Assembly: GCA_947626155.1 (NCBI GenBank)
Contig: CANQRC010000003.1
Coordinates: 1 to 47,092, forward strand
Direction: 5' to 3'
Length of the DNA stretch: 47,092 nt
From: an uncultured Clostridia bacterium
GTDB lineage: Bacteria; Bacillota; Clostridia; Christensenellales; UBA1242
Each line of letters starts with the position of its first letter. The first letter of the stretch is position 1. The notes below the pieces were generated by a model. The model saw nothing but the letters and a program-made list of their open reading frames with translations, did no database searches and was not told the origin of the DNA. Both the position numbers and the translations under genes were made by a program. This document shows, in pieces, positions 5,053-40,645 of the stretch.

Positions 5053-5064
5053 CGGAGGAAAAAT

Positions 5065-11204: not shown

Positions 11205-11234
11205 CGCAAAAATTCAAAAAATGCGTTATTTTTT
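11202..11234 (+). terminator. intrinsic terminator after trpS
   Basis: TAACGCA (11202-11208) pairs with TGCGTTA (11222-11228). The loop is 13 nt and TTTTTT follows. Confidence 0.55.
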
Positions 11235-11293
11235 AATTTTTTTGCAATTTTTTGCCCATTTTTTTTGCATTTTTTTATTTTTCTAAATTTTTT
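11229..11293. repeat. helically phased T-tracts (predicted intrinsic DNA bend)
   Basis: T-runs of 5-8 nt lie at 11229-34, 11237-43, 11248-53, 11259-66, 11270-76, 11278-82 and 11288-93. Three of them occur as T(6-8)GC. Centre-to-centre spacing is mostly about 10-12 bp. Confidence 0.5.
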
Positions 11294-11416
11294 GTCTATT
11301 TATTTTAATTTTAAAAAATCTTGAAAATAATTTTTGGTTTGTTTTTTAGGCGTCAAGCGTGTTTTTTTTGATTTTGTGTATATATTAAATAATAAACTCA
11401 AAATTTGTGTTTTTGC

Positions 11417-11446
11417 TTGCTTTTTGAAGACTCAATTTTGTATAAT
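11417..11446 (+). promoter_or_regulatory. candidate promoter for the giant gene
   Basis: TTGCTT (11417-11422), 18 nt, TATAAT (11441-11446) preceded by TG. This leaves a ~48-nt leader to ATG 11495. Several alternative AT-rich hexamers are nearby, so the assignment is tentative. Confidence 0.3.
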
Positions 11447-11494
11447 TAAAATATAAATTTGGGTCGATCTTGCCTGCCAATTTCGAGGGGTGCA

Positions 11495-11587
11495 ATGAAA
11501 AAAAATTTCTTTTTTCTTTTGATTATGATTTTCAGCATTTGCGGAGCGCTTAGTTATTTTGAAACGCCTGCGCAACTCTCTTATGCT
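11495..11587 (+). other. signal peptide of giant protein
   Basis: MKK, then a hydrophobic core FFFLLIMIFSICGAL, then ...LSYA before a polar mature sequence. Confidence 0.6.
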
Positions 11588-14500
11588 GTCAGCACAAATG
11601 TCAGCACTTGGGATCTTAACGGTAAAGATTCCTATGAAGATTTGGGAGGAAGTGATTTTCAGGGGGTGACTGAATCGGAATATTTTGCCACAAGCAATGC
11701 GGCTTACATAAATTCGGCTAGGGGCTTTGCTTACTTTGCTTATCTTGTAAACAACAATAAAGACACAATGAGCACGAAAACCGTTTACCTGAATGTGGAT
11801 GTTGATTTGGGAGATTATGAGTGGAAACCTATCTTCAACTTCCAGGGCGATTTTAACGGGCAAGGGCATTATGTTTACAATTTGAAAATAACAAAAGTTA
11901 CACAATCCAGCGGACAATATTATGCGGGCTTATTTGGAAGTTATTCGGCCAGCAGTAAAAAGAGCATTTCAAATCTGCATTTAAGAAATGCTGATATAAA
12001 CATCCAAAATGGGGTTTCCGGCACTGCTTATGTCGGCGGCATTTTGGGAGGCCTTGGTGTGAACGCATTAAGTTCTTCAAACTCGGCTTCCGTTTCAAAC
12101 TGCTCAGTAAAAGGAAACATTTCGGTAAAATCTTCAAGCGGCAGCGTTGATGTCGGGGGTGTTATAGGTGGCGTTTGGAATAATGACGGCGTCAGCAAAA
12201 TTATGTCTTCCGGCAAGATAACTGTTGATGCGGCAAACATAAATGTTGGCGGTCTTGTGGGCAGTTTTGTTAGCGGTGCGCTTAAAAACAGTTACTCTGA
12301 AGCGGACATAACTCTTAACTCCTCAAATGAAACTTCTGTGAAAAATGTCGGCGGTCTTGTGGGCTATTTAAAAGATAGTGCCTCCAATTCTTCCTCTTGG
12401 TACACAAGGGTTGCAAATGTTTCGGATTCATATTTTAAGGGCGTGGTCAATACTCCTCAGTCCTATGTAAGGGTTGGTGGAATTGTTGGCAGAATGGATG
12501 TTTTGGGCGCCGAGGAGAACAACACAATCTCAAATGTGTTTAATGTGGGGCAAATTACCGCCGGCAATGTCTCAACCAACGCGTCCAAAGCCGGTCTTGT
12601 TGGCTGGGCAACTTGGCAAACTGGAAAGACGGGCTCGGGACTGCTTAAAAATTCGTTCGCAAAAGATTTTTCAACGGAGCAACTTTTTAAAACAAATTCT
12701 TCTTCATCTGGCTCGCAAAGTTTCTCTGGCAAAGGGCTTGTTGGCAGCGAACTTGCAAATTTGGACGAGTTTTCAAAGACAAAAGGCTTTTATGAGAACG
12801 AAAAGTTTTGGGAAACAGAAAATGCTTGGGACTTTGAGAATACTTGGGAAATCCAAAGTGGGCTGAACGAAGGTCTGCCATACCTTCGCGGAGTTTATCA
12901 AATGGGCGCAGCCAACAATGACCAAGACTTGTCACAACAGGCTCAGTTGAGGGGCGCAGGAACGGCGCAAAACCCATATCTTATTGAAACGGCTGGAGAT
13001 TTTGCTTATCTTACAAGCACATCTACAATTTGGAACGGCAATTATTTTTCGCTTCAAAACAACATTGATATGAGCAATAAAACTTGGGTGCCAATTGGAA
13101 ATGAAAACAACCCATTTTCTGGCGTTTTTGACGGAAATGGCTTCACAATAAGCAATTTGACAAGTTCTTATTTAAATGCTTTTTCAAGCATAGGCTTGTT
13201 TGGACAAACGCAAAATGCAGTTATCAAAAATTTGACCATTGAAAACTGTGATTTTTACTCAACGGCAAGCGCAAAAATTGGGGCCTTTGTTGGAACTGCA
13301 GGCAGCGAAACTTATTTGATAAATGTAAAAAATTCCACTTCTTATAACGCTGTTGGCGACGGAAACGTCACAAAAATCAAGGGAAAGTTGAATGCAGAGG
13401 GAAGAGAAAACTTTGACGGCTACGACATTACAATAGACCCTAACGGCGGAACATTTTATAGCCCTAACAAACAGGCTTATAGAGGCGAATATCACATCAT
13501 TTTGAGAGAAGACGGCTCGGTGCTTTCGCAAGAAATAGATACAACTTTTGGACGAAGCATTCCTGACATTTCCACTCAATATGGAAAGGCCGACACAATT
13601 ATAAGAAGAGGCTACAAGAGGCTTGGTTTTTCTGCATCAAAAGAGGACAATGTTGTATCTGACGCCGGCGCAGAAGTGTTGACTGATGCTGAGCAAATAT
13701 TGGCTGCTGCAAAAGAAAATTTGCAACTTTACACAGTTTGGCTTTCTGGTGCTGACGGCGCGCTGCTGACGCAAGAGTTGTATGTTGTTTACAACCAATA
13801 TGAAGTGGCAAACTTTGATGCGGAATTAAACTCAGGTGCATCATACTTAACCAGCAAATTTTATAGCCAAAACAGAGAGTTCAATTTAGACGGCTTTGGC
13901 GCAACCTATGGGCATGGTGAGACAATAGATGGAATAAATGAAGATAACGTCTATGCCAAATTCCAACTTATTTATGACGCCCAAACTGAGGAATATGAAA
14001 ATGTTTTGTGGGGCGAGCCAGAGTATTCTGACGGCACAGTAAAAAAACTTCGAGACGGATTTGTTGTTGCTGGTCTTCACACTGGCTTTGATGGAACTGA
14101 TTTTGAGGACGATGTAATTAGTCCTTCTTTTGGCTTCATAAATGAGCAATTTAGCCCTGTTTTGTATGCAGAATGGAAGGGCCTGCCATCTTCCGGCGGA
14201 AGCGAAGGAAATTATTCTCAAAAACTGAAGATAACTTTCAAAAAATCTATTGACAGCACTCAAAAGTGGACAGGCTTTGACAACTTTACCTGGGAAGAAG
14301 TTTTTGGGATTAGTAAAGAGAAGAATGTTCACTTGGAGGGAATTTCAACAGATGAGCAGGTTCATACGTATTCTCAAAATTCTATAGGCTCTCAGACAGA
14401 AGATTTGGTGGTTGAGTTTACATTTGGCACAAATTACAGCGACAGGGCCAACAACTATCTTCATCTTTACACCGACAACATTCAAGCCGGCTTTAACATG

Positions 14501-17500
14501 GGCAGGGCAAGTTTGAAAAATAGCCCAGAAGACACAAATTTTGGAAAACTTAAAACCACTCTTGACGTGGACGACGAAACGGGACTGCATAATTTTGATA
14601 TAAGCGGCACCAAGATTTACAACCTTGTTGGAGACAATGAACTTGAAATTTATATTGAAAGACAAGAAATCTTTTCTGATGTCACAATCAGCGACAATGT
14701 TCAATTTGCTTTGTCGCCATTTGTTGAGGTTGAGGGCGCGTCTTCCTATGAAATCTCAATAACAAAGGGAGAAGAAAGCAAGGCAATTTCCGCTGAGGAG
14801 CAAATTTTTGGCTATGATTTTAAAAACAATCAAGTTTTGCTTATGTCTAAGGACGGGGCAATTAAAGAGGAAAGTTTAACTGACGAGTTTAAACTTGACA
14901 CGGCGGATGAGAAACTTTTGTTTACCGTGACCTATCATTTGAATGATGCAGATACTCAAAAATTCTACTATGTTTATAAATATGAACAAAAAGGCGATAA
15001 TAACTGGCTAGCGCTGTATTCAGCTGACGAAGACGGAAACGAAAAATTGCTTATAATGGCCTTGAAAGATGTTGAGGCGACAAACAAAGAAATTCAAAGC
15101 CAACTTGTTACATTTTCAAATTCCAAACAAAATTTTGCCCTGATTTATAAGACGGAAGAGGGCTTTAGCGTAAGCACAAGAGAGCCAAACTTCTTGGAGG
15201 CGGTAAAGGTTGAGGGCAAAGAGGGGGATGCCGTTGTAAGAGGATATTTTGGATATAAAGACGTCAATGAGTTTGCTGGCAGAGGCATTGCACTTTTAAC
15301 TTCATATAACTCAATTTTCCTAAACTATAATTTTGAGTATGATGGAAACAGAAATCAGGAGTTGTTTGACACTTTCAAACAAGCCAGCACGCTTGTTTCA
15401 CAAGCAAATTATCAGACAACAACTGACGGCCCTACAAGTGAGCTTAGCATGGCGGCGAATGCTCAAAAATATTTCCGCCTTAACACAAGCGCAAAAGTAA
15501 CCCTTGTTTCTGTTGAGCTTCAAAAGGATGCCCAAGGGCAAACGCCTGCGGCAGTTAATAATGAATACACAATTTCTGAGCCATTTTCATTTAATATTGA
15601 CCTTGACGAGGGCAAAGAAAAACTTGTTGCTGGGCAATACACTGTGACTGTGCACTTTGAAGATGTTACATACAGCGTAAACTATGGCGCAAAATTTGTG
15701 TCGCACTCAAATATGAAAAACTTTGAAAGCCTTGTAGGAAAGGGCGAAAATTATACAACACTCTTGAAAGACTATGACGGAGATTATTTGACAGTAAGTG
15801 AAAATTTGCAAGATGCTCAAGAAAAGTCTTCAAAACTTGAAAACGCCGACGCAGAAGTTAAACTTCTTCAAAAAACGGACCTTCTTTATAACGACGAGAT
15901 TTCGCTTAAACAAAACGAGGAAAATGTTGGCAAAATTGGCGTAAACTACTATGGCTTTTATTTGAGAACCAACACGGGCAGAGAACTCAACAAAAGAGTT
16001 GAGTATTCAAACACGTTGGGCGCTATTTATGACGGCGTTTCAAGAACAACAGGGGAAGATTCTGCTGTTGGAAAATATATTCTGAATGTCATTGTCATCT
16101 TTGAAGTTAGAGAGATGACGCTTGAAGTCAGCAACACTATTATTGTTGAGAATTTTGACAACACGGGTGTTGAAAGCCATGCAACCTTGAACAAAGACTT
16201 AAAAATAGAATTTTCATCTACGCCAAAAAAGTATGAATATAAAAACATTTCGGGCGATGGGCAAAGTACCACCTTAAACTTTGCATTTCCAATAAGTAGC
16301 CAAGGAAATGAAGTGGGCTATGATATTGTTGGAGTAAGAATCTTGCACGGCGGCGAAAAAGTTGACCTTGACGACGGACAATGGGAAAGTGAAAACAGCG
16401 GAACGCCTAATGCGTTTGAAAAAGATTTTAAAGAAACTTTTGACAAACTTCTAGAAAACCAAACTGAAACAACGCAAAATTATTCTTTCCAAATTGTTGT
16501 TAAGCAAAAAGTGGCAGAAATTATTTTGCATTCTGGCGCAGGGGAGACTTATAGGCAAGAAAATTCAAGGGCAGGAAAAGTTACAAATTCAAATGGCGAA
16601 GATGTTACAAACAACGCTTACACCACAACCGCTTACTTTGGCGGCTCAACAGTTTCTTTGACTGATGGAACGGTTATGATTGGCGAAAAAGCAGAGTTTA
16701 TTAGAAATCTCTTTGTGACCAGATATGGCTACACTCCAAATGGCTGGAATATCCATTATGGCGGAGACGGAGAACTTGAAGATTTGTATATTGGCTACTC
16801 ATTTACTTTCAACTTAAGCACCCAACAATATTCAACTTATGAAGATGGCAGTTACAAATTCCATATTTATATGTGCTGGGACGCTTTAGGCTTTAAAATT
16901 TCCTTTGACAGCAACGGCGGAGAGGAAAGAGTGGCGGACCTTAGCATTGATTTCGATGAAAAAATTGACTTTAACTCCCTTAAAACCGTTTCAAGAGCCG
17001 GCTATTCTTTCAAGGGATGGGCGCTTCAAAACAACTTGCTCTTTGAATATAGCGGCACGCAATTTTCGATTGCAAATGCCGTTATTTCTGGCGACAGTGT
17101 AATCATTTCGGACACAAAATACTTTGCAAAAGACGGCGACGAGTGGCTTTACGCTTACAGCGGAAATATTCAACTTTTGGCGCAATGGGAGGCAAACTCT
17201 TATAAGGTGACTGTTGATTTCAACAGAAAAAGCGCTGGCGGCGAGACCAAGACATTTGATATTATTTATGAAAAGCAAGACGAATTTAAAAAGATTCTCA
17301 GCGATGAAGAATTGCTAAATTTAACAAGAAGCAAATTTACTTTTGCTGGCATTTATTATATTTTAAATGACAATCTTGTGCAGCTTTTGGAAAGCAATTT
17401 GCTTGTCAATGGAGAAATGGGGGTTGACATTACATCTCACACGGCGGCAGGAACAAATGTTCTGACCTTGTATGTTGGCTGGACTTTCGACTATGAAAAC

Positions 17501-23500: not shown

Positions 23501-26500
23501 AATCTTGTTTCGGGCGAGGGTTTGGGCTTCACACTTACAATGTATGAAAACACCGCCGAGGCTGGGCAAGCTCCAGTTAAGGGCGGCATTGCAAAATATG
23601 TGAATGCTTCAAGCGACTATATTTTGGGCGGCGAAATTGATCCAACTGACGCAAACAGAAAAAACTATATTTTAAGCGTTGAAAATGTTGTGGGAAAAAT
23701 CACAAAGGCCACTCTTTATATTGTGATTGACAATTCAAAACTCATATTTGACTACGGCACACTTAAAAACGATGAAAATTTGCCTTTCACGTACGATGCG
23801 CCAGCAAGTGTAATTAACTTTAGTTCTTATCTTGAAGATGAAACAAGCAAGCAAAGGCTGGATTTTGACATTAAAGTGGATGCGGAAAATGCTTCAATCT
23901 CAACCTCGGGCTTCCTTGATGTTGGGTTCTATGATGTGAGAGTTTACACAAAAAGCGTTTTGGACTTTGATTTGCAATACATGGTCAATGGCACAATTTA
24001 CAATGCCGACGAAGGACGCATAAGGGCGGCAAGAGTTGAGATTGAGCAAATTCCTCTTACAATAACTGAAAAAGACGGACTTGCGCTTTCAACACTTTTC
24101 ACAAAGCGTTATGACGGCACAAAGACAATTGACTTCAAAGATGGTGACCAACTTAAATTTAATCTTGTTGGAGTTTTGGAGAAGGATTTGGTCACCCTTG
24201 AGAATGTTGAATATGAAAACAGCCTTGACGGCGAAAGAATTCCAATCATTTTCACATTTAATGGGGACGATGTTGGAAACTACAATTTGTCAGCAATTGT
24301 AGGAAGTTATTTTGGAACAATTACTGCTGTTCAAGTGAACATTGCCTTTGACACCAAGGCGGAAGCGGGAGATGAGATTGTAAATCAAGACGGCAAGGGT
24401 GTTTCAGAAATTATTGTAAAATATCCATTTGCAAGCGGAAACATCATGGCAAGTTCAGTGACTCCAGGTGCAATTTTCCCAACCGATATCAGAGGAAAAG
24501 CGGGGCACGCGTTCCTTGGCTGGTATATGCTCTTTGAAGATATTGAAGAAAACTCAAAGGAATATAATCTTTTGGTTAATTATTCTCAAAATATGCAGTT
24601 TACTTATTCCGAGAGAATTTTTAAGGTTAAAATTGAAAACAACACACTTGCTGTTGACTTCTTCAAAGCGCTTCTTGAGGACCAAACCTTGGGCTTCTAT
24701 TATCAAGATGAGAAGTTTACAACAAATGGACAGCCAATTACTTTCACACTTGAAGCAGATTGGTCGGTGAACTCTTATGAGGTTACAATCAATATTGTAG
24801 ATGAAAACGGGGACAAGTTTGCCGAGGAATATGATTTAGCAACAGTTAAATATGGCACAGCACAAACTTTAACACAAGAAACCGAAATGTTTGATATAAA
24901 GGGGCACACTTTCAGTCACATGGTTGTGTTCGACTACGGCTTTAAAGTTGGATTTATTCTTCCAGAGGATGCAAAATGCACCTTTATTGGCTTCTATTTG
25001 GGCACAACACCAATAAATGAGTTGGCCGACGATAATTTCAGGGCGGATTCTACACTTCTTTCCATAACAAACGTTAAAGAAGCTTATGAAATAAATTTGA
25101 GATTTAAAATCAGGACTGTGGAGGTCTCCCTTGACTTCTCTGATTGCAGGACTGCAACAGTGGCAAATACCGACGACTTTACTTCTCAGGGCGATAGGAT
25201 TTGGGCTTGGCAAACAAATTATTATGCTCTAAAAGAAAACAGCACATCAATAAAAGACTTGCTTGACCTTGCTCAGGTTCAGTTTGCGGGCTACAACCTT
25301 ACAAGCCTTGGCACCCACTCGGCAGAGCAGTTTGAACAGACGCATCTATTTGAAATTTTGCCAAGCGAACTGATAGATGACAGATATGTTTTGACGCTCC
25401 TGGGCAGTTTTGAGGCAAAACAAATAAGCGTGACCTTGCACTTTGGCTATGACAAAGATGAGGGCGAGGGTGAAAAGGTTGAAACGCACGAAATTACTTT
25501 TGACACAACATTTGGCGAGGCAGAATGGTGGCAAGAAACCCCAACAAGAGCGGGCTATGACTTTGTTGAATGGAGCACATCAAATTCGGGTGACGGACAC
25601 AAAGTTGACGGACAAACCCAAGTTACGCAAGAGGAAGCATATGTTCTCTATGCAATTTGGGAGAAGCAAAAAATCACAATTCACTTTGAAGTTGAAAACG
25701 CCACACTTGAATTCCAAGCTGTTGAGGGGCTTACAGTAATTCAATATGCTTGGGGATATGAAATAAAAGATATTGAGTATGCTGCGTCTATCATTTTCAC
25801 CATTACGCCAAGACTTGGCTATGGGCTTGGAGAACTTCCAAAAGAATTCTCAGTTGTGGAGGGCAACCGCTATCAATTTACCGTTCCGGCAAATCCAGAC
25901 AGAGAACAATTCTTGGTCTTCAAACTTCCTGTTAACAAAAACAACAACCAAGTTACACTTTCGGGCGACGAGCACGTTTCAACCGTTGCCGCTTTTGAGG
26001 GCGAAACTTCAAAAGATGTTGAGGCAGACCAATTTGAAGTGCTTACAGACACTGCGTTTAGAATTGAGGTTACCGCAGAAAAGGGCTATGAGATGACGGA
26101 GGAATTTTCTGTCACAGGAAACCCAGACGAAAACACAGACTTTAACATTTCTTCAAGAGTTAACACAATAATGCTTGAAAATGAGGAAAGGTCAGTTTTG
26201 ACCGTGAGCGTTACGGGGATAAAGAGCGGGCTAAACTTTGTGTTCTCAACTGCACCAAGAAGAAACACAATTTTGGTTGCATTTAAAGACCCAGAGGACA
26301 ACAACAGTTTGGAGGCAATTGACGATGTTTATTATAACGGCGCTTCACATACTGTCACCGAGAATCCACTTGCTCTCACCGTTTTAACGGGCACATCATA
26401 TGATTTCCATGTTAAGTTTGCTTATGGCTTCGACTATCAAAAAGGCGACTTTGAGGCGGACAAAATATCAGTAAGCGATGACGCAGTAAGCGAATATGAG

Positions 26501-29500
26501 GGATATGTTAAATTCACCATTTCTGGCGCGGAAACTGACGGAACAATTACAATTTCAACGCTGAGAAAGCAGTTTACTTTGACACTGAAAGTTGTTTCAT
26601 ATGACACCGAGGGCCAGTTGGTTGAAGATGTTTCAAATAATGTTGCTTTTGTAAATAACGAAAATGGAGCAGATGGCGTTTTGGTTGATTACAACACCGA
26701 GGCCATATTGACCGTTCAAAAAGCCACGGCATTTGATTTCGAGGGGTGGCTTGAAGATTACAACTCTCAGCCAATAAGTGGCGCTGAGCAATTCAGATAT
26801 AAAGTTGTGGCTGACAAGACGCTTTACGCGGTGTTCTACGAGGGTGAGTCATACAGAATTTGGTTTGGCACAGTGCTTCTTGAAGAAACCTTTGTTGAGC
26901 AAGAGCAAAACTTAGTTAAATATGAAGACTATAGAATTTATGACGATGGCGGGCTGTTCTTCGATAAAGATGAAGTTCAATTGCAGAGCGACTCTTCGGC
27001 ACAATTCTCATTCATTAAAAACATTTCATCAACAGAATTTATGTATGAACTGCCTTTGGGCTTTGACTTTGTTGGAGTTGGATATTATCTTAATGGCGAT
27101 TTTAAGGTGGCATTTAGAGGCGAGTTTGACACGCTTAATGGAAAGGCAATCTTCACACTTGCAGGAAGCCAACTTGCGTCAGATGTGACAAAGGTTTACG
27201 CTATTTTGCAAGCAAAAGATGTTGTGCTTAACTTTAGCTCCGAAATTGAAATTGAGGGCGCCATCTCAGAAGATGATGTTGATGACCCTGTTGGAGATGT
27301 GAGCATTAGAAGTGGCTCAAATGTTGTCAACAGTTTTGGATACATAAACTACACAAGAATTCACTATTCGGGTGAGGACTTTGTTGGCGGAAAACTGCTT
27401 TCCACCTCACAATTCTCTGTTATGGCATATTCAAATTGCAACTTTGAGTTCTTGGTGAAGATAAGAAAGAAAGGATATATGCTCAGCAGAATTGACTACA
27501 GCGGAGACATTTCAATTTACAATAAAGAAGAACAAACTGAGGACGGGCTTCTTTACACAATTTACATCCTTTCAACCAACACGGGAAGTTTTGACATAAA
27601 ACTTGTTTACACCTCACAACTAAACTTTGTTGACTTGTCTTTTGTAAGCGAGAGAACGGGCAATGATTATGAGGTTGATGGCGGCGTGTTTGACGTTCAA
27701 ATTGACGAAAACAGCGTTGGCAGAGCATGGACAACAAACAATCAAACCGCAATGGCCACTGTTTCTGGCTACACCAATGTTGGCTTTAAAGTCACGGCAT
27801 ACATAAGGGCAGGCTTTACTTACAAGGGGTTGTTTGTGCTTGCGGCTGATGATATGGACATCATCACGGCCGAGGCTTTGTATGAGACACTTGTGATTGA
27901 AGACACAGGCTTCACAGGAAAAGTAACATTCAGCGTTGCTAACTTCTTGGATTTAAACAAAGTTAAAATCATCTTGACGCCAACAGTTTACACGGTTTTG
28001 TTCAAAGACGACAACACAACGCTTTTGACAAAAGAAGTTTACTTCTATGAAAACTTCGAGTTTGACAATGTTGAGATGTCTAAATTGCAGGCCAAAAAGA
28101 CAAATTATGTTTATCAAGGCTACTTCACAAGACAAAACGGCGCAGGAAAACTTTATGTCAACTCCGACATTATGTTTGTTGGGCCTTGGCTTGAGAATGG
28201 ATATGTTCTAAACTCAATCACGCCAACAAAATTTGTGCTTGAAGACAACGCACAAAAGTTGCCTGATGGAACAATTGAGATTTCGCTTTACCTTTATATG
28301 TCTTACTTAAAGACAAGAATAACATTCTCGTTCAACACTCCTCTTGACTTTGGCTTGACTGCAAAAGATTTGATTTCTGGAATAGATGATTATAATTCTT
28401 GGTATTACTTCACAGAACCTATGAGCATAGAGGTGGCTTACGGAACGGATATAAGATTTGTTGGGCCAAAGATTTCGGGCTATGAATTTTATAAGATGAT
28501 CATCTCTCAGCGCAGACCAGGCGAGAGCGATTGGACCGAAATTGACACCTCAAACTACGGAAGCTCAAACAACATTCCTTGGCTTTCAGATGAGGCAGAC
28601 CCATATGCAGAATGCAGAGTTGAACTTTGGTATTTCAGAGAAATAAGCGTTCAAATAAGGGGTGGGCTTGGTAAGTTTACACTTTCCCAGGATGGCTATG
28701 ATGCTTCAAGCAGGGGAAATGCTTATGCGCTCAACCAAAAAGGCTACTATGACCCTAACAAAGAGGTGACAGTCACCGCTGAAGCAGATTATGGTTATGA
28801 GTTTGTGTCTTGGAGTTCTTATCCACTTATTGGCAGACCTACAACAAACCCTGTTTACACCGTTACTCCTGCCGCAACCAGACAATTGTCGCTAAGGCTT
28901 GTCTTCGCTGGAAAGGGCGTGCTCTTAAGGTTTGAATATGACAACACAAACGGGAAAATTACCGAAGCTTCAAGAAAGGGATTTGATGGGGAAAGCCTTG
29001 GCGCAATCCAAAATCCAACAGATTTCAGTGTATTGGTTGGTGACACGCTGACGCTTTGCGTGTATAACTCTCCAAACTACGGCCTGTCTTGGACAATTAG
29101 ATATTCTCTTGGCGAAACTCAGGCATTTACAGATATCAAATTTGTGAAATATCAAAGTGGTCACCAATATTTTGAGTTTAAAGTTTTGCCAGAATTTATT
29201 CCGGTTGACTGGACGGAGGGCTACTTCCCAGAAGTTGTCATCACTCCAATTTTTGAAAGTGAGAGGCTCTCTGTGTTTATCACAACTTCCTTATCAGAGG
29301 ATTTGGAAAACGCCGTGGATGAAAACAATGTTAAAAACATAGGTTATTTGACTTATCTTGGCAACGCCGTTGAATCCTTCACCGCAGATATATCCTCAGA
29401 TATCCAAATTGAAGTTGTGGCTATGGACAGATATTCAATTTCTCAAATAACAATCACAAACAAAGGGAATGTTCTTGACGATTTGACCCTCTTTGACGGC

Positions 29501-30064
29501 AAAACAATCACGCTTTCAAGTCAGTTTATTGCCGACAATCAAATTGAAGGCTCTGTTGGAATTGATGTTGTGTTTGCGCGCGAAGAATGGGAAGATTTGA
29601 CACTTGAAATAGAGGAGTTGTCGGGGCTTGGCACAAACGAAAATCCATTTTCAATTTCAAGCATAGAAGATTTAATCTTGATGATGAGGCTTGTAAATGG
29701 CGGAGAGGTATCAAGGCGAGGAATTAAATATGCTGATGCTTCATATGTTTTGCTTGCAGATTTAAACCTCAACGATAAATTCTGGACGCCAATTGGCACA
29801 GAGGAAAATCCATTTAACGGCAAGTTCAACTTCAACGGGCATAGGATTGACGGCGTCAACAACGCAATCTTCTATGAACAAGTTTATTACTTTGGCCTGT
29901 TTGGAGTGCTTGGCCCTCGCGCCACACTTCTCATGCGCGCCGAGACATACTGGTATATTTACCTCATTGTGTTTGGCGCAATTGTTCTCTTGGTTGTCCT
30001 GTTTATAGCATTCTTCTACGCGAGAAAGAGAAAGAAAACAATAGATGAACTTTCAAAAAAATGA
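11495..30064 (+). CDS. giant (about 6,189 aa) cell-surface repeat protein / putative adhesin with signal peptide and C-terminal TM anchor
   Basis: Uninterrupted ORF. ATG 11495 is preceded by GAGGGG (11485-11490). The N-terminus MKKNFFFLLIMIFSICGALSYFETPAQLSYA is a signal peptide. The body is modular (see sub-features). The C-terminus has a hydrophobic helix plus RKRKK. No LPXTG-like motif was seen near the C-terminus. Confidence 0.9.
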   Translation: MKKNFFFLLIMIFSICGALSYFETPAQLSYAVSTNVSTWDLNGKDSYEDLGGSDFQGVTESEYFATSNAAYINSARGFAYFAYLVNNNKDTMSTKTVYLNVDVDLGDYEWKPIFNFQGDFNGQGHYVYNLKITKVTQSSGQYYAGLFGSYSASSKKSISNLHLRNADINIQNGVSGTAYVGGILGGLGVNALSSSNSASVSNCSVKGNISVKSSSGSVDVGGVIGGVWNNDGVSKIMSSGKITVDAANINVGGLVGSFVSGALKNSYSEADITLNSSNETSVKNVGGLVGYLKDSASNSSSWYTRVANVSDSYFKGVVNTPQSYVRVGGIVGRMDVLGAEENNTISNVFNVGQITAGNVSTNASKAGLVGWATWQTGKTGSGLLKNSFAKDFSTEQLFKTNSSSSGSQSFSGKGLVGSELANLDEFSKTKGFYENEKFWETENAWDFENTWEIQSGLNEGLPYLRGVYQMGAANNDQDLSQQAQLRGAGTAQNPYLIETAGDFAYLTSTSTIWNGNYFSLQNNIDMSNKTWVPIGNENNPFSGVFDGNGFTISNLTSSYLNAFSSIGLFGQTQNAVIKNLTIENCDFYSTASAKIGAFVGTAGSETYLINVKNSTSYNAVGDGNVTKIKGKLNAEGRENFDGYDITIDPNGGTFYSPNKQAYRGEYHIILREDGSVLSQEIDTTFGRSIPDISTQYGKADTIIRRGYKRLGFSASKEDNVVSDAGAEVLTDAEQILAAAKENLQLYTVWLSGADGALLTQELYVVYNQYEVANFDAELNSGASYLTSKFYSQNREFNLDGFGATYGHGETIDGINEDNVYAKFQLIYDAQTEEYENVLWGEPEYSDGTVKKLRDGFVVAGLHTGFDGTDFEDDVISPSFGFINEQFSPVLYAEWKGLPSSGGSEGNYSQKLKITFKKSIDSTQKWTGFDNFTWEEVFGISKEKNVHLEGISTDEQVHTYSQNSIGSQTEDLVVEFTFGTNYSDRANNYLHLYTDNIQAGFNMGRASLKNSPEDTNFGKLKTTLDVDDETGLHNFDISGTKIYNLVGDNELEIYIERQEIFSDVTISDNVQFALSPFVEVEGASSYEISITKGEESKAISAEEQIFGYDFKNNQVLLMSKDGAIKEESLTDEFKLDTADEKLLFTVTYHLNDADTQKFYYVYKYEQKGDNNWLALYSADEDGNEKLLIMALKDVEATNKEIQSQLVTFSNSKQNFALIYKTEEGFSVSTREPNFLEAVKVEGKEGDAVVRGYFGYKDVNEFAGRGIALLTSYNSIFLNYNFEYDGNRNQELFDTFKQASTLVSQANYQTTTDGPTSELSMAANAQKYFRLNTSAKVTLVSVELQKDAQGQTPAAVNNEYTISEPFSFNIDLDEGKEKLVAGQYTVTVHFEDVTYSVNYGAKFVSHSNMKNFESLVGKGENYTTLLKDYDGDYLTVSENLQDAQEKSSKLENADAEVKLLQKTDLLYNDEISLKQNEENVGKIGVNYYGFYLRTNTGRELNKRVEYSNTLGAIYDGVSRTTGEDSAVGKYILNVIVIFEVREMTLEVSNTIIVENFDNTGVESHATLNKDLKIEFSSTPKKYEYKNISGDGQSTTLNFAFPISSQGNEVGYDIVGVRILHGGEKVDLDDGQWESENSGTPNAFEKDFKETFDKLLENQTETTQNYSFQIVVKQKVAEIILHSGAGETYRQENSRAGKVTNSNGEDVTNNAYTTTAYFGGSTVSLTDGTVMIGEKAEFIRNLFVTRYGYTPNGWNIHYGGDGELEDLYIGYSFTFNLSTQQYSTYEDGSYKFHIYMCWDALGFKISFDSNGGEERVADLSIDFDEKIDFNSLKTVSRAGYSFKGWALQNNLLFEYSGTQFSIANAVISGDSVIISDTKYFAKDGDEWLYAYSGNIQLLAQWEANSYKVTVDFNRKSAGGETKTFDIIYEKQDEFKKILSDEELLNLTRSKFTFAGIYYILNDNLVQLLESNLLVNGEMGVDITSHTAAGTNVLTLYVGWTFDYENGYSLELTDKDFEQQVYDGSAKTIDLSKKFTADNIASKSGFVIPGKDGKFIGVEEDNNVSLSFEVDGQARDQFTVSQTNAGQYIFYLTLVLTDNSKNVSGQDIVGQVAISFTFTITPASVDAQTDDEQYRFVFAKMIIEPYYIKSEIDELENFEAIVSYLSEKESARAGDADTLLTTAEPQDAFNYIIFKHYNLGITTGTQYVDYKNWTYQDYLDYKEENGEEVENVRNLLTYFDYFTYGSQEKNFEASFSSQGIFSLGELATKDELSITSIKIYTDVASFMPNLSYTLRVFVDAKDKQKLNNFYLSTDGEDYYFDFGNATLLKEVLEVNNHSDYDFAYYMMTSSSRVEAGFDADIENEQLQDKIKLAKDALKTKYGRDFYLVDAERLIFASANVFTSTTGSAEKDTTYTFKQEGDFLHFDNVLAYALKDIEVEPNLFEFENVSSIFNLTMNESYEFKILGLQDVYHIVLQANYFTQQDGEFVTSVLDATTLQELKVSTDFLKDFLYISDVRYTSNESVGMLSLDDTKSLSERKRVYADERVFIADIMTMNGYQIDIYVSRAVTQITFNTKQFINNNVGIFAWKNSDMVSESELKAQWTLPISYTWEAETVADQEFSAQTISLYAIYTDLIYVSYNNIPGEDEIPAERRSHALIKLGVSTYDDVYKPEVSGFTLDSLIYSGDITFKGLFANGGEGIYHPTFYDANSPASIFKCVDITCYWTMDVDILYEAFNGDNYVYTTDIYDFTDTWNVNTLLHIRNENNVLFDYSYKWVKVLDGEEKVISQTEEFALEGKGSYAESGKYKLYITSNLKEKYSKYVAEDGVRGGKTDYTFTLNFVRRKLTSITPSNTTADYNGREQISDWSITFTYTNSRGREASYSSTYSPDSAFLIKYEDAETKSMKDAGVYTIRYTISSDDYDISELDQDSYNVFDENGTYYYQFEYTINAIVVEIDTFEVEKTFNTLVGQTVFIQNVTVSQTNETIAVELTRDESHKSDEHVGEYSLYLDGSGEYTKNYILKKGETTLVDKGEILDTKTVLGTLKIKQSGGLTVTFEDLTTSTYTTSFKKEGFSFEITTQDGKIVLKIVSGGNAEQTYNLQLLDKSAGSVITEKVILDILIENLSDITESFRSEANGETATTVKNSGTYYYETQIGENFLKYYQTFEISNAFKFVIEKAKINSDTWKISKTYDGTNTLNLNLQGEALEDETEMYVVATFTSGFHAGTNLRVTLALAGESEDLSNYTLTKTEFEDGEIKQRNATITFGTTKTQYEYGEVSASNFKTILQRESVKDGGTDVSNILYDNTYELSYELTAKEDNLTQSDRGFYYVGTYTFKIQTISSQDFVFTIEVPTFSIVAKNVTHVVTPVSRTILDSVETDITDTYTDPVTGDVITLHYTIKETDYNNNGRYKQGTYNFVLSSCTSDPEKLKDNFNISIDENNNGLTVTVAATTLYVEISDEQILSQTYNAKTYEFQVSGSALSLKNSTQEQTSVNLTFYIKTDENGGRETITSVDASGLTIYSGRETDTTFKDAGTYTLLLKGTVDGYTAVSFAKKYDFVIGKVTLTVSDETVTKTYDKTTKISSISVTGAISGDDVVVSGEFEDSNVNKVVDGEVQLWNVQLSLSGTAASNYALSKDTIKGEIQKADAEIEYSGQTTAIFGEIDKNFSFDSKVTVKATDKSEVARSQYELSVSISRTADGDLYSEANYLHAGSYTITFSAVESATRNYNITQKSITLTVTARQIQIVFVTSGQIKAFFGDKSTQTNQIDYVYTVPRYNETISLVLTREKAETNAIGYYKITGATVKTGETYSDDYSISSVSDNTPEGEGAYQIVAPDVPLYVLLGEADTINKNSYSDLLKIEYDGKVYSSISIGGDAETGYELVVTSSDGETSHRFKISFYTVDEAGQVYTKHDAVAGLSSQFSYVGALSKDVGTYAMRAYSTVAGDYSQNVKLGLYGEQNCFKLSITQRKVTLKVADNIFSREFTNAQAVYHFTSAESQDMLSNLVSGEGLGFTLTMYENTAEAGQAPVKGGIAKYVNASSDYILGGEIDPTDANRKNYILSVENVVGKITKATLYIVIDNSKLIFDYGTLKNDENLPFTYDAPASVINFSSYLEDETSKQRLDFDIKVDAENASISTSGFLDVGFYDVRVYTKSVLDFDLQYMVNGTIYNADEGRIRAARVEIEQIPLTITEKDGLALSTLFTKRYDGTKTIDFKDGDQLKFNLVGVLEKDLVTLENVEYENSLDGERIPIIFTFNGDDVGNYNLSAIVGSYFGTITAVQVNIAFDTKAEAGDEIVNQDGKGVSEIIVKYPFASGNIMASSVTPGAIFPTDIRGKAGHAFLGWYMLFEDIEENSKEYNLLVNYSQNMQFTYSERIFKVKIENNTLAVDFFKALLEDQTLGFYYQDEKFTTNGQPITFTLEADWSVNSYEVTINIVDENGDKFAEEYDLATVKYGTAQTLTQETEMFDIKGHTFSHMVVFDYGFKVGFILPEDAKCTFIGFYLGTTPINELADDNFRADSTLLSITNVKEAYEINLRFKIRTVEVSLDFSDCRTATVANTDDFTSQGDRIWAWQTNYYALKENSTSIKDLLDLAQVQFAGYNLTSLGTHSAEQFEQTHLFEILPSELIDDRYVLTLLGSFEAKQISVTLHFGYDKDEGEGEKVETHEITFDTTFGEAEWWQETPTRAGYDFVEWSTSNSGDGHKVDGQTQVTQEEAYVLYAIWEKQKITIHFEVENATLEFQAVEGLTVIQYAWGYEIKDIEYAASIIFTITPRLGYGLGELPKEFSVVEGNRYQFTVPANPDREQFLVFKLPVNKNNNQVTLSGDEHVSTVAAFEGETSKDVEADQFEVLTDTAFRIEVTAEKGYEMTEEFSVTGNPDENTDFNISSRVNTIMLENEERSVLTVSVTGIKSGLNFVFSTAPRRNTILVAFKDPEDNNSLEAIDDVYYNGASHTVTENPLALTVLTGTSYDFHVKFAYGFDYQKGDFEADKISVSDDAVSEYEGYVKFTISGAETDGTITISTLRKQFTLTLKVVSYDTEGQLVEDVSNNVAFVNNENGADGVLVDYNTEAILTVQKATAFDFEGWLEDYNSQPISGAEQFRYKVVADKTLYAVFYEGESYRIWFGTVLLEETFVEQEQNLVKYEDYRIYDDGGLFFDKDEVQLQSDSSAQFSFIKNISSTEFMYELPLGFDFVGVGYYLNGDFKVAFRGEFDTLNGKAIFTLAGSQLASDVTKVYAILQAKDVVLNFSSEIEIEGAISEDDVDDPVGDVSIRSGSNVVNSFGYINYTRIHYSGEDFVGGKLLSTSQFSVMAYSNCNFEFLVKIRKKGYMLSRIDYSGDISIYNKEEQTEDGLLYTIYILSTNTGSFDIKLVYTSQLNFVDLSFVSERTGNDYEVDGGVFDVQIDENSVGRAWTTNNQTAMATVSGYTNVGFKVTAYIRAGFTYKGLFVLAADDMDIITAEALYETLVIEDTGFTGKVTFSVANFLDLNKVKIILTPTVYTVLFKDDNTTLLTKEVYFYENFEFDNVEMSKLQAKKTNYVYQGYFTRQNGAGKLYVNSDIMFVGPWLENGYVLNSITPTKFVLEDNAQKLPDGTIEISLYLYMSYLKTRITFSFNTPLDFGLTAKDLISGIDDYNSWYYFTEPMSIEVAYGTDIRFVGPKISGYEFYKMIISQRRPGESDWTEIDTSNYGSSNNIPWLSDEADPYAECRVELWYFREISVQIRGGLGKFTLSQDGYDASSRGNAYALNQKGYYDPNKEVTVTAEADYGYEFVSWSSYPLIGRPTTNPVYTVTPAATRQLSLRLVFAGKGVLLRFEYDNTNGKITEASRKGFDGESLGAIQNPTDFSVLVGDTLTLCVYNSPNYGLSWTIRYSLGETQAFTDIKFVKYQSGHQYFEFKVLPEFIPVDWTEGYFPEVVITPIFESERLSVFITTSLSEDLENAVDENNVKNIGYLTYLGNAVESFTADISSDIQIEVVAMDRYSISQITITNKGNVLDDLTLFDGKTITLSSQFIADNQIEGSVGIDVVFAREEWEDLTLEIEELSGLGTNENPFSISSIEDLILMMRLVNGGEVSRRGIKYADASYVLLADLNLNDKFWTPIGTEENPFNGKFNFNGHRIDGVNNAIFYEQVYYFGLFGVLGPRATLLMRAETYWYIYLIVFGAIVLLVVLFIAFFYARKRKKTIDELSKK
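11783..11890 (+). other. head motif 1 (W-x-P-I ... F-x-G-x-F-N/D-G-x-G-H/F)
   Basis: VYLNVDVDLGDYEWKPIFNFQGDFNGQGHYVYNLKI. Confidence 0.5.
11921..12660 (+). repeat. GLUG-like glycine-rung beta-helix repeats
   Basis: About 25-35-aa periodic rungs: YAGLFGSY, VGGILGGLG, VGGVIGGVW, VGGLVGSFV, VGGLVGYLK, VGGIVGRMD, KAGLVGWAT. Confidence 0.55.
12953..13255 (+). other. head motif 2
   Basis: GAGTAQNPYLIETAGDFAYL...YFSLQNNIDMSNKTWVPIGNENNPFSGVFDGNGFTISNL...IGLFGQT...IKNLTIENCDF. Confidence 0.55.
16520..17490 (+). repeat. Listeria-Bacteroides-type (InlB B-repeat-like) repeats, cluster 1
   Basis: FKISFDSNGGEE...SRAGYSFKGWAL...LLAQWEANSYKVTVDFN...SKFTFAGIYY...LTLYVGW, and upstream RYGYTPNGWNIHYGG. Confidence 0.55.
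17510..24350 (+). repeat. array of diverged MBG-like (Y-D/N-G / Y-G) Ig-like repeats
   Basis: Recurrent module boundaries include QQVYDGSAKTIDL, TADYNGREQISDW, ISKTYDGTNTLNL, KTQYEYGEVSAS, VTKTYDKTTKIS, GEIQKADAEIEYSGQTTAIFGEI, GKITKATLYIVIDNSKLIFDYGT, FTKRYDGTKTIDF and VGNYNLSAIVGSYFGTITAVQV. Confidence 0.5.
24475..25690 (+). repeat. Listeria-Bacteroides-type repeats, cluster 2
   Basis: GKAGHAFLGWYM, NSYEVTINIVDENGDKF...IKGHTFSHM, ISVTLHFGYD...PTRAGYDFVEWSTSNSGDG...YVLYAIWEK. Confidence 0.5.
25700..29600 (+). repeat. chain of degenerate ~90-110-aa beta-sandwich modules ending in [AVT]-x4-G-Y/F-x-h (divergent B-repeat-like)
   Basis: FTITPRLGYGLGEL, IEVTAEKGYEMTEEF, HVKFAYGFDYQKG, VQKATAFDFEGWLED, LVKIRKKGYMLSRI, VTAYIRAGFTYKGL, KKTNYVYQGYFT, VGPKISGYEFYKM, VTAEADYGYEFVSWSS, VYNSPNYGLSW. 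Confidence 0.4.
29630..29915 (+). other. head motif 3 (membrane-proximal, followed by a single rung)
   Basis: GTNENPFSISSIEDLILMMRLVNGG...YVLLADLNLNDKFWTPIGTEENPFNGKFNFNGHRIDGVNN...YYFGLFGVLG. Confidence 0.55.
29948..30022 (+). other. C-terminal transmembrane anchor of giant protein
   Basis: YWYIYLIVFGAIVLLVVLFIAFFYA, followed by a RKRKKTIDELSKK stop-transfer tail. Confidence 0.7.
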
Positions 30065-30106
30065 TAATTGCCCTTTAAGGCAAATAAAATAAAGCAAGGA
30101 GTTTTT

Positions 30107-36818: not shown

Positions 36819-36835
36819 GTTTTCAGTCTTTTTTT
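36811..36835. terminator. bidirectional intrinsic terminator between convergent genes
   Basis: AAGACTGA (36811-36818) pairs with TCAGTCTT (36823-36830), 4-nt loop, T-run 36831-36835. It lies between the stop of the 204-aa ORF and the stop of spmB. Confidence 0.7.
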
Positions 36836-40639: not shown

Positions 40640-40645
40640 AATCAC

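Follow-up and report, generated by a model that had tools for sequence, protein, structure and literature searches.

What kind of protein occupies an uninterrupted reading frame of more than six thousand codons, and is the gene that encodes it genuine? These questions are raised by a 47,092-nt stretch of DNA from an uncultured Clostridia bacterium (the whole stretch analysed here, hereafter the window), in which one open reading frame extends from an ATG at 11495 to a stop codon at 30062–30064 and takes up 39.4% of the sequence. The original prediction had described a single frame over 39% of the window without stop or frame break, and the NCBI gene call yields exactly the same 6,189-aa product from the same ATG. 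That product had also been read as a giant, exported, anchored and modular surface protein; this broad reading is consistent with all of the evidence gathered here and is strengthened by two relatives of the protein. In our view its product is a giant fibrillar protein of the cell surface, exported by Sec and anchored at the C-terminus (type I), in a bacterium with Bacillota-like gene order, and we place the probability of this reading at about 0.68. UniProtKB holds more than 41,000 proteins of 5,000 aa or more, among which surface and attachment proteins form the second largest bacterial class (PMC11573180).

11495..30064, + strand: coding sequence of the giant protein, 6,189 codons plus stop; mature protein of about 688 kDa, pI 4.45

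The gene is real and not an assembly artefact, because a protein of 6,143 aa from an independent Logan assembly (here P0129) is collinear with its product over the entire length, 34% identical, the largest indel being 19 aa. A second relative is the orthologue in GCA_947629895.1, which stands in the same place after trpS and whose known length of no less than 5,178 aa is limited by nothing but the end of the contig. The competing explanation holds that the long frame is an artefact and no native functional gene, whether through chimerism or collapse in metagenomic assembly, as a pseudogene, or as part of mobile or phage DNA; it draws on the metagenomic derivation of the contig, on the singleton cluster which the protein forms, and on the lack of further relatives in GTDB species genomes and JGI metagenomes with the patterns used. 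We regard it as extremely improbable. Collinear relatives of matching size and place occur in two independent assemblies, and the start of the locus recurs, almost unchanged, in a second sample. A stop-free run over 6,189 codons has a chance of about 1e-188 at this base composition, and the identities at the three codon positions (0.62/0.70/0.43) follow the pattern expected under coding constraint. Neither TRF nor repeat searches at the nucleotide level found repeated DNA inside the gene that could have misled an assembler, GC content and GC skew are uniform, and searches of viral contigs, and of plasmids by tblastn, returned no relatives. The absence of nucleotide-level tandem repeats and the unlikelihood of assembly collapse had both been anticipated, the latter now on the firmer ground of P0129 and the syntenic orthologue. 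The gene is also native to its genome, with a GC content of 0.405 against 0.402 in the rest of the window and with housekeeping surroundings.

These surroundings are trpS upstream and uppP downstream, a core setting without an obvious island, as first described, and with the GC content of the gene equal to that of its flanks. Genes resembling spmA and spmB also lie nearby. Four short elements bear on the expression of the gene:

11203..11234, + strand: terminator-like hairpin of trpS (AACGCA...TGCGTT followed by a T-run), read from the sequence, which parts the giant gene from the upstream operon
11417..11446, + strand: candidate promoter with -35 TTGCTT, an 18-nt spacer and an extended -10 TGTATAAT, kept base for base in the relative with 76% identity
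11485..11497, + strand: Shine-Dalgarno sequence GAGGGG (11485–11490, 4 nt before the ATG) and ATG; GAGGAG in the relative
30065..30107, + strand: spacer of 43 nt before uppP, whose Shine-Dalgarno sequence AAGGAG lies at 30096–30101 and whose ATG lies at 30108

The trpS hairpin is identical in GCA_947629895.1 and ERZ27060228; a terminator scan missed it because its stem is poor in G-C pairs. Between trpS and the giant gene, the 76%-identical relative keeps only the promoter block base for base and has diverged over the remainder of the spacer, a pattern which makes the block a candidate promoter. The Shine-Dalgarno sequence and ATG noted initially are confirmed. We rejected a longer reading frame from a TTG at 11459, since this start has no Shine-Dalgarno sequence, the ATG and the signal peptide behind it are conserved, and NCBI calls the ATG. 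No terminator on the + strand was found in the 43-nt spacer, and transcriptional read-through from the giant gene into uppP is therefore possible.

Only two hydrophobic segments exist in the protein, one at each end:

11495..11587, + strand: predicted signal peptide, aa 1–31, with a hydropathy peak at aa 5–23 and putative cleavage after SYA
29945..30061, + strand: C-terminal transmembrane helix, aa 6151–6175 (Kyte-Doolittle maximum 3.17), and basic cytoplasmic tail ARKRKKTIDELSKK

Both ends are conserved. The pattern MKKNFFF...SYA/(V,I)S recurs in the orthologue, P0129 keeps AYAVSS, and the helix with its tail (WYIYLI...RKRKKT) is conserved in P0129, so that the signal peptide and the C-terminal helix with basic tail that had been proposed are borne out by hydropathy and by conservation alike. 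A lipoprotein N-terminus, suggested by a conserved FSIC-G, was considered and discarded, as the lipobox is non-canonical and the conserved SYA/VS signal-peptidase I site follows. Between the two ends lie some 6,100 predicted extracellular residues which are acidic and cysteine-poor. The hydrophobic segment and basic tail of a sortase-type anchor are present and the LPXTG-like motif is missing: three loose matches lie far from the C-terminus and none occurs after aa 2884, in agreement with the sortase signal having been reported absent. Motif searches for HExxH, RTX (GG.G.D) and YSIRK found none in the protein. It also differs from type I-secreted RTX adhesins of the LapA/SiiE type, which lack an N-terminal signal peptide and carry RTX GGxGxD repeats and a secretion signal at the C-terminus, in having a signal peptide, no GG.G.D motif and a transmembrane helix as its C-terminus.

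What the protein might present to the outside is indicated by its N-terminal region, where Pfam recognises GLUG motifs, and by a cap module that occurs three times:

11588..12904, + strand: GLUG-motif head (Pfam Glug), aa ~32–470, with cap copy 1 at aa ~60–200 and GLUG motifs at aa 176–210 and 248–273
12947..13414, + strand: cap copy 2 and a short GLUG-like unit, aa 485–640, self-similar to aa 68–210 and aa 6041–6137
29576..29905, + strand: cap copy 3, aa 6028–6137, beside the membrane, within the best-conserved stretch (47–54% identity to P0129)

Glug (PF07581) matches two stretches, aa 248–273 (29.3 bits against a cut-off of 20.5, E 9.6e-7) and aa 176–210 (18.0 bits), and in P0129 it scores 39.6 bits (E 4.9e-10) at the position that maps to aa 178–210. 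The first ~500 aa have 698 GLUG-type homologues that carry PF07581/PF05342. These belong to the GLUG proteins (PF07581, often with PF05342) that are widespread in Bacillota and Bacteroidota, and the homology amounts to 25–29% identity with E values down to 6e-93. The head is presumed to be a beta-helix by analogy with this family. GLUG relatives carry three to four copies per protein of the cap module NPY.IETAGDL...W.PIG...F.G.FDGNG..I..L...GLFG, and the module at aa 485–640, which has no Pfam match of its own, is 37–45% identical to the equivalent module in many of them. Of the two GLUG-like beta-helix heads originally described, the first stands on its 29.3-bit match and the second is only a cap with a few rungs. 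The third copy, at aa 6028–6137, had been overlooked; it is a truncated GLUG cap directly before the transmembrane anchor. Among 120 GLUG relatives examined none has the cap module fused to a C-terminal transmembrane anchor, P0129 excepted. The GLUG relatives retrieved are 1,000–2,600 aa long and share nothing with the giant protein beyond the head, their coverage being at most 38% of its first 1,500 aa.

Sequence comparison places only about 10–12 modules of the protein, covering about a quarter of its length, in known families. Between the head and the membrane, the recognisable modules of the putative stalk are:

16892..17050, + strand: Flg_new (Listeria-Bacteroides repeat), aa 1800–1852; Pfam E 4.1e-7, 30.5 bits, above 27
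17537..17764, + strand: possible MBG-type module, weak, aa 2015–2090; MBG (PF17883) E 0.16, 12.9 bits, below 23.3
21020..21235, + strand: YDG domain 1, aa 3176–3247; PF18657 E 4.5e-6, 27.3 bits, above 25
22175..22402, + strand: YDG domain 2, aa 3561–3636; Pfam E 2.1e-9, 37.9 bits, above 25
22505..22702, + strand: MBG_2-like module, sub-threshold, aa 3671–3736; PF18676 E 5.5e-4, 20.9 bits, below 25, model positions 1–72 of 72
24098..24295, + strand: YDG domain 3, borderline, aa 4202–4267; Pfam E 1e-4, 22.9 bits, below 25; P0129 equivalent E 1.3e-4
25451..25654, + strand: Flg_new (Listeria-Bacteroides repeat), aa 4653–4720; Pfam E 1e-7, 32.4 bits, above 27; TIGR02543 E 0.0016
26642..26833, + strand: weak module of Flg_new/Flg_new_2 type, aa 5050–5113; Flg_new E 0.0081; Flg_new_2 match in P0129 (E 0.0098) maps to aa 5058–5116
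28721..28822, + strand: divergent InlB B-repeat (Flg_new_2), aa 5743–5776; 31.1 bits, above 23.6, E 2.4e-7 / E 5e-6

The same families match the same aligned positions in P0129, where YDG reaches 52.7 bits (E 5.2e-14, mapping to aa 3564–3635) and the equivalent of the Flg_new_2 module at aa 5743–5776 has E 1.3e-6. Domain scans of this kind had been proposed at the outset, and they identified a GLUG head, two or three Listeria-Bacteroides repeats (Flg_new), between one and three B-repeat domains (Flg_new_2) and three YDG domains, and left MBG below threshold. Tiling the protein with Flg_new (PF09479) gave two windows in aa 620–2010 and four in aa 4390–6050, and TIGR02543 scored 18.8 bits against a threshold of 20.95. 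Of the two Listeria-Bacteroides clusters that had been postulated, the Flg_new modules at aa 1800–1852 and 4653–4720, together with Flg_new_2 at aa 5743–5776, are supported; the module map in its detail was an over-reading. Flg_new_2 (PF18998) gave three tiled windows at E<=0.01, with weak matches in P0129 that map to aa 4761–4806 and 5058–5116. A chain of B-repeats over ~1,300 aa was likewise claimed; the module at aa 5743–5776 stands, and Pfam tiling, HMM iteration and hhalign all fail to reveal a continuous chain. The supposed array of MBG-like modules over ~2,300 aa is not detectable in Pfam tiling or in profile-profile comparison, and those Y-D/N-G modules that do score correspond to YDG and a sub-threshold MBG_2. 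No MBG match reached the gathering score anywhere in the protein, tiles over aa 2000–3180 were empty, and those over aa 3170–4400 gave only two MBG_2 windows. The three YDG copies recognise one another (hhalign probability 89–94%; copy 3 to copy 2, 93%), and the module at aa 2015–2090 has a weak hhalign link to aa 4088–4197. HMM iteration from single modules or from Pfam-supported seeds recruited no further copies, and in profile-profile comparison, judged against controls with reversed sequences, links arose only among the three YDG copies, among the three cap copies and, weakly, with Flg_new. Long cryptic arrays were dropped as a candidate for this reason.

About 75% of the giant protein, some 4,700 residues, has no family match, and two long regions stand out:

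13412..16879, + strand: dark region 1, aa 640–1795; two relatives in 1.84e9 proteins, tiled Pfam empty, AF2 pLDDT 30
17792..21004, + strand: dark region 2, aa 2100–3170; Pfam tiles empty, AF2 pLDDT 30.6

The start of the first region (aa 640–760) is a weakly recognised Flg_new-like unit, with an hhalign probability to Flg_new of 64% at aa 630–725. The second is the segment least conserved with respect to P0129 (22–27% identity at aa 2400–2600). Segment-wise structure prediction, which had been suggested as a check, produced no confident model for either: AlphaFold2 with two-sequence alignments gave a pLDDT of 30.4 for aa 640–1780 and 30.6 for aa 2005–3200, and Foldseek with the former model found no match at E<=0.001, an outcome to which we give no weight. 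Sequence and profile searches of the PDB were empty. These ~4,700 residues are protein "dark matter": they fall into no family, none of their relatives has a solved structure, and billions of sequences contain almost nothing homologous to them.

Since three quarters of the protein lack a family assignment, a hidden enzymatic or other functional domain is conceivable, and such a domain could lie within this portion. The protein would then be a carrier of an enzymatic or toxic activity that escapes recognition, for example a beta-helix glycan-degrading or protease-associated module, or would be processed and shed. Streptococcal M26 (IgA1/Zmp) proteases have GLUG-bearing N-terminal regions. In many homologues of the head there is a Peptidase_M26_N domain (PF05342) or an enzyme domain, for instance PF00082, PF13472 or PF03629, and in other giant proteins carbohydrate-active domains were revealed only by structure prediction (bioRxiv 10.1101/2023.11.21.568195), which we count in favour of this alternative. 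However, the giant protein has no protease domain, unlike the GLUG relatives with Peptidase_M26_N; HExxH is absent from it and from P0129, no catalytic motif or enzyme family appeared in Pfam or NCBIfam scans at any tile size, as the lack of a recognisable catalytic motif had led one to expect, and the profile searches of the PDB argue in the same direction. We consider an enzymatic carrier improbable.

Relatives of the protein are very few. An exhaustive phmmer search with aa 640–1780 against 1.84 billion proteins returned only two, a word-indexed protein search with aa 2800–4300 found no homologue, a protein search with aa 4690–6189 gave one match that is confined to the cap module, and a literature search on the accession numbers found nothing. 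Judged by these searches, the protein belongs to a tiny, previously unnamed family. Its orthologue in GCA_947629895.1 shows a protein identity of 46% against a flanking DNA identity of 76%; the protein evolves faster than its neighbours, as is typical of exposed proteins. A comparison of lengths among relatives, also called for at the beginning, gave 6,189 versus 6,143 aa and hence a conserved length. Conservation with respect to P0129 is not restricted to the tip and is highest in the ~800 aa next to the membrane. In contrast to most giant adhesins, the stalk consists of modules that are all distinct, rather than near-identical repeats, with a total length that is conserved between relatives.

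This conservation gives weight to a structural function, in which the protein would be an envelope element, namely a spacer, coat or "ruler" of fixed length which keeps a set distance or surrounds the cell or spore with a protective brush, and in which the GLUG ends would serve assembly or cross-linking instead of ligand binding. Length and module order are kept at only 34% identity with no indel above 19 aa, variable tandem repeats are absent, the membrane-proximal ~800 aa are the most conserved, and a cap module lies at the membrane end. The core-gene surroundings, with uppP adjacent and possibly co-transcribed, and the spmA/spmB-like genes nearby point the same way. Yet a single copy per genome of a 688-kDa protein would be a costly coat, such modules as can be recognised are of fibrillar-adhesin type, the faster evolution suits an interaction surface, and no S-layer (SLH) or cell-wall-binding family was found in any scan. 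On balance a structural element is rather unlikely. Quite unlikely, too, is a further idea, that of a fixed-length, non-repetitive "molecular tether", which would comprise ~60 distinct and individually conserved modules, with new folds or an unrecognised activity in the ~4,700 residues and with the GLUG cap and transmembrane helix as a new membrane-proximal anchoring or assembly device. If it were true, an uncultured Bacillota lineage would possess in this protein an organelle dedicated to attachment, and more than another adhesin.

The reading as an anchored fibrillar surface protein can be compared with known systems. Monzon et al. (2022, PMC9210967) treat Flg_new and MBG as domains of fibrillar-adhesin stalks, and the giant protein shares the plan of these proteins: a signal peptide, a putative terminal binding domain, a stalk of Flg_new, Flg_new_2 and YDG-MBG type, and an anchor at the opposite end. 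It differs from them in its length (6,189 aa against a mean of ~1,200 aa in the training set of PMC9210967), in its stalk, which has about ten recognisable and mutually very divergent modules whereas theirs usually repeat one family, and in its anchor, a transmembrane helix instead of a sortase motif or any known anchor domain. The analysis found stalk-type domains and a transmembrane anchor, and no domain of demonstrated adhesive function. By analogy, the protein is probably an adhesin. Conserved length and non-repetitive modules are atypical of classical adhesins.

Other giant surface proteins resemble it in part. Ebh (EbhA) of Staphylococcus aureus is a surface protein of ~1.1 MDa with an N-terminal signal peptide, a very long extracellular rod, a single C-terminal transmembrane segment with positive tail and no LPXTG. 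It carries a YSIRK signal, and alpha-helical FIVAR-GA repeats, dozens in number, make up the protein. The likeness is one of topology only: the giant protein lacks YSIRK, shows no FIVAR or GA in Pfam scans and is non-repetitive, and we found no sequence homology between the two. Giant extracellular proteins of Lactobacillus (Apilactobacillus) kunkeei, a member of the Bacillota, are lineage-specific and resemble almost nothing in the databases; all that can be recognised is a signal peptide and, at the C-terminus, a short conserved segment, and their positional orthologues are closer to each other than neighbouring copies are (Tamarit et al., 2015, PMC4494060). Those genes, which number up to five or six paralogues and are atypical in composition, are clustered in tandem (PMC4494060), while the giant gene is single, of native composition and in a housekeeping setting, and no homology was detected between the proteins. 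Like the Periscope proteins (Whelan et al., 2022, PMC9704523), it would hold a distal functional domain away from the cell surface on a long stalk; Periscope stalks are made of near-identical tandem repeats and vary in length, in contrast to a gene without DNA repeats whose product measures 6,189 versus 6,143 aa at 34% identity. Beta-helix heads and stalks of Ig-like or B-repeat modules already characterise a known class of giant modular surface proteins, and no new mechanism is opened by this one.

For an anchored fibre, the following course of events may be proposed. The gene would be transcribed from a promoter of its own, the conserved extended -10 block, and the 31-aa signal peptide would direct export and be cleaved off. 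Some 6,100 residues would be threaded out until the C-terminal hydrophobic helix stops the transfer, the RKRKK tail staying in the cytoplasm. Outside, many different small modules, among which Listeria-Bacteroides/B-repeat and YDG/MBG types are recognisable, would form a long extended stalk that holds the N-terminal GLUG head at the far tip, where its most likely task would be to bind a ligand, be it on a host, on a particle or on another cell. With extended modules, such a fibre might measure roughly 150–250 nm. To our knowledge GLUG domains have no established ligand, and for that reason the adhesive tip is an analogy.

The protein is probably the main determinant of what this organism attaches to. 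A 688-kDa protein that stays intact, collinear and constant in length among relatives with only a third of their residues in common, and that lacks the tandem repeats by which bacterial giants are usually explained, is a clean example on which to ask what selects for length as such. It also holds a lesson for annotation, in that domain matches were hidden in long tiles and recovered by short slices; the Glug match of the head was missed in Pfam tiles of 680 aa and 2,200 aa.

The giant gene, 11495-30064 (+), is a single open reading frame of 6,189 codons running from ATG 11495 to the stop codon at 30062-30064, and it takes up 39.4% of the window. The probability of an equally long stop-free run at this base composition is approximately 1e-188, and the longest other ORF overlapping the gene in any frame is 161 aa. 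The uninterrupted frame and good start that had been claimed from the DNA are borne out by a Shine-Dalgarno sequence GAGGGG (11485-11490), a conserved ATG, and an NCBI gene call with exactly the same 6,189-aa product. TTG 11459, given as the start in an ORF listing, was rejected because it lacks a Shine-Dalgarno sequence, whereas the ATG with its MKKNFFF... signal peptide is kept in a relative and is used by NCBI. The expected lack of tandem repeats at the nucleotide level extends to dispersed ones, neither kind being found within the gene. The gene does not differ from its flanks in GC content (0.405 vs 0.402) or GC skew, and the neighbourhood is housekeeping as described: upstream lie dnaB, two unknowns, gltX and trpS, and downstream lie uppP, holB and genes for a P-type ATPase, a PSP1 protein and a methyltransferase.

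Three independent lines indicate that the gene is real. In the related genome GCA_947629895.1 (contig CANRFP010000008.1), typA, AAT, dnaB, two unknowns, gltX, trpS and a giant gene follow in the same order as in the window; this orthologue is called at 5,178 aa, a lower bound since it reaches past the contig end. Over its first 1,615 aa it shares 46% identity with the window protein, as against 76% for the flanking DNA, and the identities by codon position (0.62/0.70/0.43) read as the signature of constrained coding sequence. Second, P0129, a homologue from an independent Logan assembly, aligns end to end at 34% identity with the same C-terminus; the length comparison among relatives that had been proposed thus gives 6,189 vs 6,143 aa, the largest indel being 19 aa. 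Third, a 2,073 b contig in ENA (ERZ27060228, NODE_19040) is near-identical to the window at ~10.5-11.6 kb, covering trpS and the gene start with two spacer differences, and therefore the same species is present at low coverage in a second metagenome. The original prediction had argued against assembly collapse, and a collinear protein of the same size, a syntenic orthologue and a near-identical contig argue likewise; chimeric assembly, collapsed assembly or a pseudogene is a very unlikely source of the ORF, and that it is an artefact is scarcely credible.

With residues 640-1780 as the query, exhaustive phmmer over 1.84 billion representative proteins found two relatives only, P0129 and a 520-aa fragment. 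Plasmid tblastn gave nothing, and none were found in the viral contigs, GTDB genomes and JGI metagenomes scanned. With four sequences seen, the protein founds a very small, unnamed family.

Hydropathy reveals only two hydrophobic segments, aa 5-23 and aa 6151-6175, the latter directly followed by ARKRKKTIDELSKK, in agreement with the proposed N-terminal signal peptide and C-terminal TM helix with basic tail. Near the C-terminus no LPXTG-like motif occurs, and HExxH, RTX and YSIRK motifs are absent from the protein, so that neither a sortase signal nor a recognisable catalytic motif appears, as anticipated. The ORF, topology signals, motif absences, lack of repeats, neighbours and composition together confirm the physical observation.

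Domain content proved dependent on the length of the query, as long pieces gave very little in Pfam-type scans and slices of 105-141 aa were far more sensitive. For aa 3061-3740, hmmscan of the 680-aa tile reported no YDG even at E<=1, whereas slices of 107-130 aa gave E 2e-9 and 4.5e-6, and the GLUG motif likewise was visible in short slices only; real domain hits can thus be masked in long multi-domain tiles. The following modules were recognised:

aa 176-210, GLUG motif, weaker (short-slice scan)
aa 248-273, GLUG motif (29.3 bits, cut-off 20.5)
aa 1800-1852, Flg_new (profile match)
aa 2015-2090, MBG, faint signal (short-slice scan)
aa 3176-3247, YDG domain (above cut-off)
aa 3561-3636, YDG domain (above cut-off)
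aa 3671-3736, MBG_2-like module (20.9 bits, cut-off 25)
aa 4202-4267, YDG domain (just under cut-off)
aa 4653-4720, Flg_new (profile match)
aa 5050-5113, Flg_new, weak (short-slice scan)
aa 5743-5776, Flg_new_2 (profile match)

In P0129 the same families score, and the aligned positions of their hits coincide with those in the window protein; at family level this validates the assignments. In a systematic scan of 130-aa windows at a 45-aa step (E<=0.01), Flg_new was the only family at aa 620-2010 (2 windows), aa 2000-3180 had no credible family match, aa 3170-4400 had YDG (5 windows) and MBG_2 (2 windows), and aa 4390-6050 had Flg_new (4 windows) and Flg_new_2 (3 windows). When profiles were compared with one another against reversed-sequence controls, the three YDG copies recognised each other, signals resembling Flg_new appeared weakly at aa 630-760 and aa 5008-5187, and no long cryptic arrays emerged. 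The domain map therefore stands in part: GLUG, Flg_new and Flg_new_2 are matched, but neither a 2,300-aa MBG array nor a 1,300-aa B-repeat chain can be demonstrated, the Y-D/N-G modules being YDG domains, three in number, with MBG_2 below cut-off.

The first ~500 aa match 698 database proteins at 25-29% identity, most with PF07581 and often PF05342. A cap module of ~110-150 aa (consensus NPY.IETAGDL...W.PIG...F.G.FDGNG..I..L...GLFG), the unit with which the GLUG domains of many other proteins begin, usually three or four times per protein, occurs in three copies:

aa ~60-200, first cap
aa 485-640, second cap
aa 6028-6137, third cap

The third copy had been overlooked in the original prediction. 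It lies directly before the TM helix, where conservation of the protein is highest (47-54% identity to P0129). Among 120 GLUG proteins retrieved, only P0129, a family member, shares the cap-plus-TM ending; as the set was chosen by an N-terminal query, its absence from the others is no more than suggestive.

Approximately three quarters of the protein is without family assignment. Word-indexed search found no homologue for aa 2800-4300 and a single match, to the cap module, for aa 4690-6189, and PDB sequence and profile searches were empty. AlphaFold2 on aa 640-1780 and 2005-3200, with the P0129 segment as the only alignment, gave unusable models (mean pLDDT 30.4 and 30.6), and Foldseek with one model (mean pLDDT ~30) returned no significant match. 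The protein is acidic (pI 4.45), has 13 cysteines and is rich in Thr, Ser, Tyr and Phe; this composition and the recognisable modules suggest a chain of small beta-rich domains. Unassigned sequence of this extent could house a hidden enzymatic activity, a reading we consider improbable beside the lack of HExxH.

The best-supported model, from sequence features, describes a fibre exported by Sec and anchored in the membrane as a type I protein. Its signal peptide would be removed after a conserved SYA, and the C-terminal helix would act as a stop-transfer anchor with the RKRKK tail kept inside the cell, as the positive-inside rule implies. Some 6,100 residues would then extend outward, placing a GLUG head at the distal end. 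The topology resembles that of S. aureus Ebh, although there is no homology to it. Periscope-type adhesins are the opposite case, as the stalk here is non-repetitive and conserved in length; a fixed-length envelope spacer or coat is an alternative we regard as unlikely, though less so than a concealed enzyme. Flg_new and MBG-type domains are counted among the stalk domains of fibrillar adhesins (PMC9210967), and among bacterial proteins of at least 5,000 aa, surface/attachment is the second largest class, behind NRPS/PKS (PMC11573180). The fibre may plausibly serve as an adhesin. The protein is best filed with the giant modular surface proteins, a known class, within which its non-repetitive fixed-length stalk and cap-plus-TM ending are distinctive; it also recalls the lineage-specific, largely unannotatable giant proteins of L. 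kunkeei (PMC4494060).

Two expression signals stand out in the trpS-giant gene region:

11203-11234, hairpin and T-run at the end of trpS, conserved
11417-11446, extended -10 promoter candidate by consensus (TTGCTT, 18 nt, TGTATAAT)

The 11417-11446 block of the 290-nt spacer is identical base for base in two species amid diverged surroundings; a tool-called promoter (TTGAAG-17-TAAAAT, 11424-11452) overlaps it and is less well conserved. Upstream of the 11417-11446 block, and unlike it not shared with the related genome, are T-rich tandem repeats at 11228-11306, with units 11, 13 and 40 nt long. Downstream, the stop codon is followed by a 43-nt spacer in which no + strand terminator was found, so transcriptional read-through into uppP may be possible. 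The uppP start is most likely ATG 30108 behind AAGGAG (product MLLALFVLG...), which we prefer to TTG 30068 of a mechanical listing. The listed start of the P-type ATPase ORF, TTG 30819, makes it overlap the end of uppP, and thus its true start probably lies downstream.

The window contains no rRNA, tRNA or Rfam elements. Its other features include:

1-837 (+), second GLUG-motif protein, C-terminal 278 aa, truncated by the contig start (Pfam Glug, E 1e-7)
877-1719 (+), 280-aa protein with N-terminal lipobox-like LSGC, C-terminal TM helix and KNKKLKKN tail
6435-7301 and 7298-8446 (+), two overlapping genes of 288 and 382 aa in the dnaB-gltX interval, no Pfam match
36834-37906 (-), adjacent pair of genes with Gate (nucleoside recognition) domains, spmA/spmB-like
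40631-41899 (+), 422-aa protein with a Pro/Lys/Gly-rich low-complexity C-terminal third, no Pfam match
42546-44063 (+), 505-aa polytopic membrane protein, MurJ/SpoVB-flippase-like by eye only

The protein at 1-837 lacks a C-terminal TM helix and shows no similarity to the giant protein by BLAST. The genome therefore encodes two or more GLUG proteins in a 12-kb stretch. Its neighbour at 877-1719, a singleton cluster with no Pfam match, shares the anchoring style of the giant protein. Counterparts of the overlapping pair stand at the same place in GCA_947629895.1 (293 and 377 aa). The spmA/spmB-like pair is a hint of a Bacillota lineage that sporulates or once did so; together with a gene order (holB, PSP1/yaaT, then tatD, ksgA) resembling that of Bacillus subtilis and the MurJ/SpoVB-like protein, it suggests that the organism may be a member of Bacillota with a cell wall. 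The T-rich coding strand of the 505-aa protein also accounts for a sharp AT-skew dip at 42-44 kb.
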